Below are positions 36,141-39,872 of a stretch of 64,000 nt of DNA, in pieces. How positions within the stretch are numbered: the first letter of the stretch is position 1; each line of letters begins with the position of its first letter. Where the stretch lies: NCBI RefSeq assembly GCF_003334305.1, contig NZ_QOWS01000012.1. One strand, given 5' to 3'. The notes under the pieces were generated by a model, which searched no databases, was not told where the DNA came from, and worked only from the letters and a program-made list of their open reading frames with translations. Made by a program: the position numbers and the translations under genes. Source of the stretch: Escherichia coli. GTDB lineage: Bacteria > Pseudomonadota > Gammaproteobacteria > Enterobacterales > Enterobacteriaceae.

Positions 36141-36533
36141 ATGAAAAAATTCGCAGCAGTAATCGCAGTAATGGCCCTGTGCAGCGCACCGGTGATGGCA
36201 GCAGAGCAGGGCGGTTTTTCTGGCCCATCGGCAACGCAAAGTCAGGCCGGAGGATTCCAGGGGCCGAACGGCAGCGTAACGACCGTAGAAAGCGCAAAAT
36301 CCCTGCGTGACGACACCTGGGTAACCCTGCGCGGCAATATCGTTGAACGCATCTCTGACGATCTCTACGTGTTTAAAGATGCCAGCGGTACTATCAATGT
36401 TGATATCGACCACAAACGCTGGAACGGTGTGACGGTGACGCCGAAAGATACGGTTGAGATTCAGGGTGAAGTCGATAAAGACTGGAATTCTGTTGAAATT
36501 GACGTCAAACAGATCCGCAAAGTAAATCCGTAA
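36141..36533 (+). CDS. ygiW: Periplasmic OB-fold stress protein (BOF family)
   Basis: 130 aa from MKKFAAVIAVMALCSAPVMA. An RBS (aaggga) lies upstream. Confidence 0.9.
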   Translation: MKKFAAVIAVMALCSAPVMAAEQGGFSGPSATQSQAGGFQGPNGSVTTVESAKSLRDDTWVTLRGNIVERISDDLYVFKDASGTINVDIDHKRWNGVTVTPKDTVEIQGEVDKDWNSVEIDVKQIRKVNP

Positions 36534-36585
36534 TTGTTACCGCTCCCGGGACGCGTTCCCGGGAATAATTTCGCAGGGAGGCAAA

Positions 36586-37068
36586 ATGACAAACCTGACA
36601 CTGGATGTAAACATTATCGATTTCCCATCAATCCCTGTGGCGATGTTGCCGCACCGCTGTAGCCCTGAGTTGCTCAACTACAGTGTGGCGAAATTTATCA
36701 TGTGGCGTAAAGAGACGAGGCTTTCTCCTGTTAACCAAAGCCAGACTTTTGGCGTCGCCTGGGACGACCCTGCCACCACCGCACCGGAAGCGTTTCGCTT
36801 TGATATCTGCGGCAGCGTTAGCGAACCGATTCCCGATAATCGTTATGGTGTGAGCAATGGTGAACTTACCGGTGGACGTTATGCCGTGGCCCGCCACGTT
36901 GGCGAGCTGGACGATATTTCACACACGATATGGGGCATTATTCGCCACTGGCTGCCTGCAAGCGGCGAGAAAATGCGTAAAGCACCGATTCTGTTTCACT
37001 ACACCAATCTTGCCGAAGGGGTGACAGAGCAGCGACTGGAAACGGATGTTTATGTGCCGTTGGCGTGA
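36586..37068 (+). CDS. ygiV: GyrI-like domain transcriptional repressor-like protein
   Basis: 160 aa with a GyrI/SbmC-like effector domain. It follows ygiW, as in E. coli. Confidence 0.88.
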   Translation: MTNLTLDVNIIDFPSIPVAMLPHRCSPELLNYSVAKFIMWRKETRLSPVNQSQTFGVAWDDPATTAPEAFRFDICGSVSEPIPDNRYGVSNGELTGGRYAVARHVGELDDISHTIWGIIRHWLPASGEKMRKAPILFHYTNLAEGVTEQRLETDVYVPLA

Positions 37069-37613
37069 TGGGGAATCTTTACCGGAGTGTGAGCCAAATC
37101 ACTCGCGATAAGTTTGAGCGAACAATGCCACAGGCGTATTGTTGTTGGGCTTATAATTTCTCCGGTAAGGAATACCATGTATACGCGAAATTTATTATCC
37201 GGTGCGCCGTAAGCCGTCTCGGGGGTATCCATGAGCAAGCCGCACTTATGGCAGGAGGCGCGGGGCACTGGTGGAGACACAGCTAAACTGGGCTGAACCG
37301 TATACTTACAGTCGACTACTTTGATGCTTTAGGCTTCCCTGGACTCGCATAACCTCAACTTCTCGAATCGCCCGGAGCGGACCCCCATGCCGAGTGGTGT
37401 GGCATGGGCGCAACCTTGTGCTGCCCTCTATGCCGATCAAGTCTACAGCAAAGAGTTGTATATCAAGGCACATTGATGCCTTTATCGCCGTCGGAGCACG
37501 TCCGGCGGCGCTATTCACGCTGATCTCCTGTGACTCGACGCGGCAGATAATGTAGTATCTCCGGCAATATTGCCCCTTTGAAGGCTGGCGAATAAGTTGA
37601 GGAATCAGAATTA

Positions 37614-39872
37614 ATGAGCGATATGGCAGAGCGCCTTGCGCTACATGAATTTACGGAAAACGCCTACTTAAACTACTCCATGTACGTGATCATGGACCGT
37701 GCGTTGCCGTTTATTGGCGATGGTCTTAAACCTGTTCAGCGCCGCATTGTGTATGCGATGTCTGAACTGGGCCTGAATGCCAGCGCCAAATTTAAAAAAT
37801 CGGCCCGTACCGTCGGTGACGTACTGGGTAAATACCATCCGCACGGCGATAGCGCCTGTTATGAAGCGATGGTCCTGATGGCGCAGCCGTTCTCTTACCG
37901 TTATCCGCTGGTTGATGGTCAGGGGAACTGGGGCGCGCCGGACGATCCGAAATCGTTCGCGGCAATGCGTTACACCGAATCCCGGTTGTCGAAATATTCC
38001 GAGCTGCTATTGAGCGAGCTGGGGCAGGGGACGGCTGACTGGGTGCCAAACTTCGACGGCACTTTGCAGGAGCCGAAAATGCTGCCTGCTCGTCTGCCAA
38101 ACATTTTGCTTAACGGCACCACCGGTATTGCCGTCGGCATGGCGACCGATATTCCACCGCATAACCTGCGTGAAGTAGCTCAGGCGGCAATCGCATTAAT
38201 CGACCAGCCGAAAACCACGCTCGATCAGCTGCTGGATATCGTGCAGGGGCCGGATTATCCGACTGAAGCGGAAATTATCACTTCGCGCGCCGAGATCCGT
38301 AAAATCTACGAGAACGGACGTGGTTCAGTGCGTATGCGCGCGGTGTGGAAGAAAGAAGATGGCGCGGTGGTTATCAGCGCATTACCGCATCAGGTTTCAG
38401 GTGCGCGCGTACTGGAGCAAATTGCTGCGCAAATGCGCAATAAAAAGCTGCCGATGGTTGACGATCTGCGCGATGAATCTGACCACGAGAACCCGACCCG
38501 TCTGGTGATTGTGCCGCGTTCCAACCGCGTGGATATGGATCAGGTGATGAACCACCTCTTCGCTACCACCGATCTGGAAAAGAGCTATCGCATTAACCTC
38601 AATATGATCGGTCTGGATGGTCGTCCGGCGGTGAAAAACCTGCTGGAAATCCTCTCCGAATGGCTGGTGTTCCGTCGCGATACCGTGCGCCGCCGACTGA
38701 ACTATCGTCTGGAGAAAGTCCTCAAGCGCCTGCATATCCTGGAAGGTTTGCTGGTGGCGTTTCTCAACATCGACGAAGTGATTGAGATCATTCGTAACGA
38801 AGATGAACCGAAACCGGCGCTGATGTCGCGGTTTGGCCTTACGGAAACCCAGGCGGAAGCGATCCTCGAACTGAAACTGCGTCATCTTGCCAAACTGGAA
38901 GAGATGAAGATTCGCGGTGAGCAGAGTGAGCTGGAAAAAGAGCGCGACCAGTTGCAGGGCATTTTGGCTTCCGAGCGTAAAATGAATAACCTGCTGAAGA
39001 AAGAACTGCAGGCAGACGCGCAAGCCTACGGTGACGATCGTCGTTCGCCGTTGCAGGAACGCGAAGAAGCGAAAGCGATGAGCGAGCACGACATGCTGCC
39101 GTCTGAACCTGTCACCATTGTGCTGTCGCAGATGGGTTGGGTACGCAGCGCTAAAGGCCATGATATCGACGCGCCGGGCCTGAATTATAAAGCGGGTGAT
39201 AGCTTCAAAGCGGCGGTGAAAGGTAAGAGCAACCAACCGGTAGTGTTTGTTGATTCCACCGGTCGTAGCTATGCCATCGACCCGATTACGCTGCCGTCGG
39301 CGCGTGGTCAGGGCGAGCCGCTCACCGGCAAATTAACGTTGCCGCCTGGGGCGACCGTTGACCATATGCTGATGGAAAGCGACGATCAGAAACTGCTGAT
39401 GGCTTCCGATGCGGGTTACGGTTTCGTCTGCACCTTTAACGATCTGGTGGCGCGTAACCGTGCAGGTAAGGCTTTGATCACCTTACCGGAAAATGCCCAT
39501 GTTATGCCGCCGGTGGTGATTGAAGATGCTTCCGATATGCTGCTGGCAATCACTCAGGCAGGCCGTATGTTGATGTTCCCGGTAAGCGATCTGCCGCAGC
39601 TGTCGAAGGGCAAAGGCAACAAGATTATCAACATTCCATCGGCAGAAGCCGCGCGTGGAGAAGATGGTCTGGCGCAATTGTACGTTCTGCCGCCGCAAAG
39701 CACGCTGACCATTCATGTTGGGAAACGCAAAATTAAACTGCGCCCGGAAGAGTTACAGAAAGTCACTGGCGAACGTGGACGCCGCGGTACGTTGATGCGC
39801 GGTTTGCAGCGTATCGATCGTGTTGAGATCGACTCTCCTCGCCGTGCCAGCAGCGGTGATAGCGAAGAGTAA
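37614..39872 (+). CDS. parC: DNA topoisomerase IV subunit A
   Basis: 752 aa. It starts with the N-terminal [23 protein letters not shown] sequence and has the active-site AAMRYTE motif. Confidence 0.97.

Follow-up and report, generated by a model that had tools for sequence, protein, structure and literature searches.

The closest described counterpart of the DNA analysed here is E.c.F12, a 118-bp chromosomal fragment of a class C group II intron that was listed by Leclercq and Cordaux (2012; PLoS One 7:e52268, Tables S2/S3, PMC3522654). E.c.F12 is 79% similar to P.s.I1 and has orthologs in the phylogroup B1 strains IAI1, SE11, E24377A and 55989 as well as in several Shigella (PMC3522654); the paper gives it only as a 118-bp BLASTN match, with no description of the locus (PMC3522654). 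From its IAI1 coordinates (3251207-3251324), the fragment was placed between parC and ygiV, and these coordinates map exactly to positions 37320-37437 of our window, the 64,000-nt stretch of an Escherichia coli contig (NZ_QOWS01000012.1, assembly GCF_003334305.1) that was analysed. E.c.F12 is the same DNA as the 118-bp core of the intron tail in the window, and ends exactly at 37437. Over 4.8 kb, the window and IAI1 share 99.875% identity, which makes the window B1-like.

The gene that this tail interrupts, ygiS, encodes a reported deoxycholate importer that is down-regulated by MqsR (PMC13409141), the toxin of a toxin-antitoxin (TA) pair, mqsRA, that is encoded beside ygiS in K-12. Reduced deoxycholate import has been attributed to cleavage of ygiS mRNA by MqsR, and this link between MqsR, YgiS and deoxycholate is disputed (PMC6918082).

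A sequence-only reading of the window had taken the DNA between ygiV and parC for a hairpin-rich orphan segment that replaced a missing mqsRA-ygiS block. The short form of this spacer is, instead, the previously listed intron-fragment scar. Beyond the E.c.F12 listing, sequence comparison extends the remnant to the left as far as 37199 (239 bp in all), into the intron-protein pseudogene, and ties it to a deletion of ygiS, to an apparently single, old event and to a count of carriers (1,354 of 5,426 genomes). Locus-level detail is thereby added to a fragment otherwise found only in a supplementary table. A literature search for ygiS together with group II introns returned no paper, and the TA reviews that were searched do not describe a locus of this type.

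Composition of the ygiV-parC spacer

The gene order in the window is qseC-qseB (minus strand), ygiW, ygiV, a 545-bp gap, parC, plsC and ftsP. ORF coordinates agree to the nucleotide with the limits first read from the sequence (ygiV ending at 37068, parC starting at 37614, 545 bp between them), and the K-12 order given in that reading, ygiV-mqsR-mqsA-ygiS-parC, matches a K-12-type genome in the same orientation. Its statement that mqsR, mqsA and the interior of ygiS are missing from the spacer was borne out by blastn against the K-12 interval. The spacer was partitioned by sensitive blastn against the same interval (K-12 locus, L001), and its features and flanks are as follows.

36586-37068, + strand: ygiV, the intact left flank (160-aa ORF; annotated as ygiV in identical loci; 98.8-99.1% identical to K-12)
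37069-37075, no strand: empty mqsRA site, the 7 nt TGGGGAA, where K-12 has the 927-bp mqsRA cassette (L001 1907-2833)
37076-37176, + strand: ygiS upstream region (former mqsA-ygiS or ygiV-ygiS spacer, with putative ygiS promoter and leader), 100% identical to K-12 (L001 2834-2934)
37177-37198, + strand: nt 1-22 of ygiS, identical to K-12 and diverging at 37199
37199-37352, + strand: pseudogene of the C-terminal 51 codons of a group II intron reverse transcriptase (RT)/maturase, from translation, BLASTP and DNA alignment
37367-37398, + strand: decayed domain V, by homology (in the relatives, a 9-bp lower stem, a 2-nt bulge and a 4-bp upper stem)
37384-37408, + strand: perfect hairpin CCCATGCC/GGCATGGG, made of the 3' strand of domain V and the 5' strand of domain VI after two substitutions
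37401-37434, + strand: decayed domain VI with a bulged A at 37430, from alignment, pair counts and folds
37438-37440, no strand: 3-nt filler CAA, differing both from ygiS (TAT in all alleles) and from conserved intron sequence
37441-37476, + strand: last 36 nt of ygiS (nt 1573-1608), with the TGA stop at 37474-37476, by alignment with K-12 and NR301
37477-37613, + strand: ygiS-parC intergenic region with the hairpin at 37487-37509, present in all E. coli; 99.4% identical to K-12 and NR301
37614-39872, + strand: parC, the intact right flank (752-aa ORF; 99.2% identical to K-12)

The term orphan therefore does not fit: 37076-37198 is 100% identical to K-12 and 37441-37613 is 99.4% identical, and ordinary DNA from the flanks of ygiS, universal in E. 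coli, makes up 296 of the 545 bp. The K-12 locus and the window share the flanking genes, the ygiS upstream region, both ygiS ends and the ygiS-parC spacer at 98.6-100% identity. K-12 additionally has a complete ygiS (1608 nt) and the mqsRA cassette (927 bp), both absent from the window. The ygiS upstream region is found as a separate piece in 5,426 of 5,426 genomes, and the ygiS-parC intergenic region is 97-99% identical in outgroup species.

The 5' end (nt 1-22) and the 3' end (nt 1573-1608) of ygiS are collinear and have kept their native flanks. Nucleotides 23-1572 of the 1608-nt gene have thus been lost, with the upstream region, both ends and the ygiS-parC spacer still in place; when K-12 YgiS was compared to the spacer by tblastn, only the two ygiS ends matched and the middle of the gene had left no remnant. 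The ygiS start codon (ATG at 37177) now opens an 11-codon stub, MYTRNLLSGAP*, at 37177-37212. A deletion scar, one of the options raised from the sequence alone, is therefore present, and it is a scar of ygiS only.

No match to the mqsR/mqsA coding sequence (L001 1907-2833) was obtained by blastn (word size 7, E<=10) in window 36900-37800. In junction alignments, the ygiV-ygiS junction of the window is that of NR301, a strain without mqsRA and with ygiS intact (TGATGGGGAATCTTTACC), and K-12 has mqsRA with its terminator at this point. In outgroup Escherichia, homology to the ygiS upstream region follows directly after ygiV, at a spacing of about 9 nt. NR301-type E. coli and the outgroups share with the window an identical ygiV-ygiS junction and the same empty TA site; unlike the window, they have an intact ygiS and no intron sequence. 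Because the junction matches mqsRA-less, ygiS-intact genomes and outgroups, the mqsRA cassette was never inserted in the window lineage, whose ygiV-ygiS junction is the ancestral empty site, and mqsRA is a derived insertion in other lineages. The proposed loss of mqsRA and ygiS as a block thus gives way to an untouched, empty TA site and a separate loss of ygiS. Nor does a remnant occupy the site of the TA module, as had been suggested: the intron remnant sits within ygiS, and 37069-37075 is untouched. What is corrected here is the view that TA module and ygiS went together and that a new RNA or element took their place at the TA site.

The ygiS upstream region is bracketed by a 17-nt, 82%-complementary inverted repeat (window 37071-37087/37160-37176). 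Its left arm spans the empty mqsRA site, so the mqsRA insertion of K-12 disrupts the repeat.

A decayed class C group II intron tail

The 239 bp at 37199-37437 are private to the short form, in that they have no K-12 counterpart. Their matches include group II introns from Cupriavidus, Ralstonia and Sinorhizobium and regions overlapping annotated ltrA in Cupriavidus, Stutzerimonas and Sinorhizobium, and a distant search returned matches of about 84% on E. coli plasmids, in unrelated contexts. This segment is what is left of a class C (IIC) group II intron, its decayed 3'-terminal 239 nt in sense orientation; the mobile-element remnant named among the earlier options was thus right in part, as the spacer does hold the tail of a group II intron. 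Its sense orientation on the + strand was fixed by comparison with three full-length class C relatives, and the DNA alignment comprised the window, these three introns and three E. coli copies (seven copies).

L006 1794-3648: full-length relative on Cupriavidus pinatubonensis p1
L007 1765-3596: full-length relative on S. meliloti pSymA
L008 1739-3596: full-length relative on a Ralstonia megaplasmid

Over the last ~90-145 nt (~70 nt for the S. meliloti match), the relatives are 79-85% identical to the window at the nucleotide level, and they share with it the C-terminus of the intron protein, the layout of domains V and VI and the ...GCCGAT end. They differ from it in being 1.83-1.86 kb long, with domains I-IV, an intact RT/maturase and a site right after a terminator hairpin, whereas the window copy has kept only the last 239 nt, is mutated and does not lie beside such a hairpin. 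Rfam D1-D4 models match upstream of ltrA in the relatives, which are thus real introns; the same models for ribozyme domains I-IV match nothing in the window, where the DNA to the left of 37199 is ygiS. Class C introns habitually insert directly 3' of terminator hairpins. The relatives start with GTGCGCCC immediately 3' of terminator-like hairpins, GTGCG is conserved at their 5' end (5' sequence of class C introns, GTGCGCCCAGCATGGGCGC), and the four copies with an intact 5' end all follow hairpins of -19.6 to -31.3 kcal/mol.

The pseudogene translates as RCAVSRLGGIHEQAALMAGGAGHWWRHS*TGLNRILTVDYFDALGFPGLA*, with an in-frame TAA at 37284-37286 and the natural stop at 37350-37352. By BLASTP (E=1e-10), it matches residues 429-455 of the 455 residues of a Cupriavidus LtrA (its last 27 residues) that carries RVT_1 and GIIM domains; the RVT_1 and GIIM regions of the intron relatives are absent from the window, where only the last 51 codons survive. 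The 70-76-aa ORFs of the spacer are spurious, in line with the doubts voiced about them from the start, and the 73-aa ORF among them terminates via the dead intron-protein frame.

A CGC triad in domain V is typical of class IIC. In the window, pairs of domain V are broken at 37376 and 37385, in addition to a C-A mismatch, and no compensatory changes were seen in this domain among the copies. The domain VI stem has two compensatory pairs in the S. meliloti copy, and the bulged A at 37430 lies 7 nt short of the end of the intron (37437), the expected branch-point distance being 7-8 nt. All seven copies are conserved up to the GAT of the ...GCCGAT 3' end, at 37437, and then diverge. When the domain V/VI structure was made explicit, 86% of cells were paired, compared to 36-50% when it was slid along the alignment, although covariation is weak, with only 2 compensatory pairs in 6 distinct sequences. 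Unaided minimum-free-energy (MFE) folds gave z-scores of -4.9 and -4.2 for relatives, with the 2-nt bulge of domain V and the bulged A of domain VI, versus -0.77 for the window copy. Because of the in-frame stop, the missing domains I-IV and RT and the broken pairs of domains V and VI, the intron tail is dead.

No close (>80% identity) full-length parent intron was found in the E. coli, plasmid or phage collections, and the private segment had no match in the phage collection. A class C intron of this family, 477 nt long and without an ORF, lies at L005 4593-5069 on a P1-like phage-plasmid (E. coli MINF_9A plasmid 3). It has Rfam D1-D4 matches, its GTGCG 5' end is intact and directly follows a hairpin that lies downstream of a holin gene, and its 3' junction shows the motif seen in the window, ...GCCGAT/CAAG. 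Its flanks are apparently split into two pieces in about 37 PLSDB plasmids, two of which were seen directly. An intron-free version of this site was sought in plasmids to tell whether the CAA belongs to target or intron, and the P1-like relatives lose homology before the hairpin, leaving no clean empty site. Two E. coli plasmids carry 5'-truncated tails of the same family at about 84% identity (L003 5001-5125 and L004 5001-5107). Complete E. coli genomes contain such tails at some 196 places on plasmids, none of them annotated, with contexts that include a position beside an IS1 remnant and bcsC and another about 140 bp upstream of sopA.

Hairpins and rival histories of the scar

We consider the spacer to be, very probably, a composite and inert scar in which the ends of ygiS are joined through the tail of a class C group II intron, without evident present function. 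The four inverted repeats that had drawn attention to it do exist, but each had been placed 9 nt too low; their true positions are 37080/37160, 37384/37401, 37465/37477 and 37487/37501, and three of the four hairpins lie in ordinary, universally present parts of the spacer. The description of the segment as hairpin-rich did not survive folding: the MFE of the 545 nt is -186.8 kcal/mol versus -179.6 +/- 6.9 kcal/mol for shuffles (z = -1.05), 11 of 100 dinucleotide shuffles fold as well, and no more than 3 inverted repeats in the spacer reach a length of 8 nt.

The hairpin at 37384-37408 is the only perfect one within the private segment. We rejected it as a designed structure, since it consists of domain V and VI strands after two substitutions, one of which is absent from a second, variant short-form allele. 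Consensus copies hold a quasi-palindrome at this position, CGCATGCC/GGCAGGGG, and each substitution removes a mismatch from it (G>T at 37405, shared by the two short-form alleles, and G>C at 37385, confined to that of the window). They may reflect templated correction of the quasi-palindrome, or chance.

Could the segment nevertheless be a functional structured RNA built from hairpins, either an sRNA or a regulatory leader of parC? Several inverted repeats are present, and transcription from the intact ygiS promoter region could cross the segment in the direction of parC, yet we hold this to be very improbable. An Rfam 15 scan of 36400-38000 at E<=10 returned only chance matches (E=3 and E=8.8, far below the gathering score), and hence no RNA family, although such a negative scan leaves room for 3' tails of the present kind, since RF00029 (Intron_gpII, domains V-VI) stays below the gathering score even on the intact L006, L007 and L008, of which only D1-D4 match. 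Folding gave z-scores of -1.05 (entire segment) and -0.77 (intron part), a scan for promoter and terminator consensus found nothing above shuffle expectation, the segment is absent from 75% of E. coli, and the two alleles stand 4.6% apart in the tail, with changes that break pairs. With no Rfam match, an unremarkable fold, degraded intron domains and a sequence that drifts freely between alleles, the structured non-coding RNA of the sequence-only reading is not supported.

The product of the rearrangement reads ygiS nt 22, intron tail, CAA, ygiS nt 1573, the sequence to which the tail is joined being CAAGTCTACAGC. An intron copy, or DNA with the intron 3' end and a few former 3' exon bases, may have become fused to ygiS nt 1573; the rest of the intron and ygiS nt 23-1572 would have been lost by deletion, either at that moment or subsequently. 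The right junction is not a clean retrohoming junction, in that CAA takes the place of the TAT common to all nine ygiS alleles compared, which represent six Escherichia lineages; GAT/CAA is likewise the sequence in copies L003 and L005. The ygiS sequence upstream of this junction folds at -8.7 to -12.0 kcal/mol, versus a ygiS mean of -8.8 +/- 3.7, and so offers no target hairpin of the class C type, and the 5' junction of the window intron has been deleted. Given the missing hairpin and the CAA, the right junction is not a canonical homing site, and a one-step variant stays live, in which ectopic retrotransposition or cDNA capture, with reverse transcription aborted after about 240 nt and the cDNA joined at ygiS nt 22, yielded a 5'-truncated, LINE-like product and deleted 1.55 kb of the target in the same event. 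We rate such a single step as unlikely. It fits an exact intron 3' end with a 5' side truncated inside the ORF, other E. coli copies of the family (L003, L004) that are likewise 3' tails with different 5' cut points in unrelated contexts, and the absence of a class C target hairpin, as expected of an ectopic event; however, the extra CAA between intron end and ygiS is not expected from reverse splicing, the left edge of L003 abuts IS1, so that at least some truncations are secondary, and without intermediates the single step is indistinguishable from insertion followed by deletion. On a weaker reading, the tail and its CAA might record RT-mediated capture of intron cDNA during repair of a chromosomal break. 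To two further histories we give next to no weight. The short form could be ancestral only if other lineages had subsequently acquired ygiS, with mqsRA; it is true that the junction without mqsRA is ancestral, but the start (22 nt) and the end (36 nt) of ygiS are retained in register, and all outgroup Escherichia species carry a full-length ygiS here, among them E. albertii, E. ruysiae and E. whittamii, which disposes of the alternative ancestral state entertained from the sequence alone. Simple decay of ygiS/mqsRA in situ, free of foreign DNA, would suit the 54% of the segment that is ygiS-flanking sequence and fares no better with the remainder: the end-to-end alignment to degraded ygiS/mqsRA that had been named beforehand as a refuting outcome was not obtained, as the middle (37199-37437) stayed unmatched, with neither nucleotide nor protein similarity to ygiS/mqsRA, and it is this part that matches group II introns.

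Distribution, age and consequences

Among 5,426 complete E. coli genomes, the full 545-bp short form occurs in 1,354, mqsRA (queried with L001 1907-2833) in 2,299, all at >=99% identity, and the ygiS interior (queried with L001 2957-4500) in 4,056. By subtraction, about 1,757 genomes lack mqsRA and have ygiS, one of which, NR301, was examined at the junction. While mqsRA is at least 99% identical in 2,299 of 2,299 carriers, ygiS drops to 95-99% in 1,363 genomes; this identity pattern would fit a cassette that has spread recently.

The order ygiV-ygiS-parC, lacking mqsRA, is found in E. albertii, E. ruysiae, E. whittamii and a divergent clade, so mqsRA is derived elsewhere and the loss of ygiS is a separate, derived event. 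Four GTDB representatives titled E. coli or S. flexneri (L012, L020, L022 and L023, which are ECDA1023, SFBU1023, ECMA0423 and ECGI0523) were left out of this polarity as apparently noisy assemblies. In these four, conserved genes show patchy identities of 55-92% and many indels beside 100%-identical stretches, and they look like error-rich assemblies rather than divergent species.

The variant short-form allele has identical sequence at both junctions and 11 differences in the 239 nt of the tail (4.6%), and it keeps the intron-consensus bases at 37376, 37385 and 37427. Since carriers share both junctions, one event is indicated, and since the two alleles are 4.6% apart in the tail, that event is old. 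The comparison points to a single old loss of ygiS in the short form, probably followed by neutral drift. As such, the fragment marks one old ygiS deletion common to Shigella and E. coli of the phylogroup B1-like kind, amounting to about 25% of complete genomes.

With its own upstream region kept, parC should be unaffected by the scar, and the only phenotypic consequence to be expected from this arrangement is loss of the periplasmic binding protein YgiS. Work on MqsR, YgiS and bile salts should take note that mqsRA is missing in 58% and ygiS in 25% of complete E. coli genomes. Two independent deletions and IS insertions hint that ygiS may be recurrently lost in Escherichia. That its loss is both repeated and adaptive, offering mqsRA-less backgrounds an alternative route to reduced deoxycholate import, is a speculation in which we place little confidence.

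Different, independent internal deletions of ygiS are present in two mqsRA-less lineages, Escherichia sp. MOD1-EC7003 (L013 6491-6925) and Escherichia sp. E1V33 (L016 6505-6932); of ygiS, one of these lineages has kept nt 464-538 and 1361-1608 and the other nt 82-254 and 1354-1608. In the mqsRA-positive strain FWSEC0002 (O145:NM; L011 2747-3960), an IS3-family element splits ygiS. In H9Ecoli (L010 2748-3430), IS1 stands in place of qseCB-ygiW-ygiV-mqsRA, and the last 63 nt of the cassette are left.
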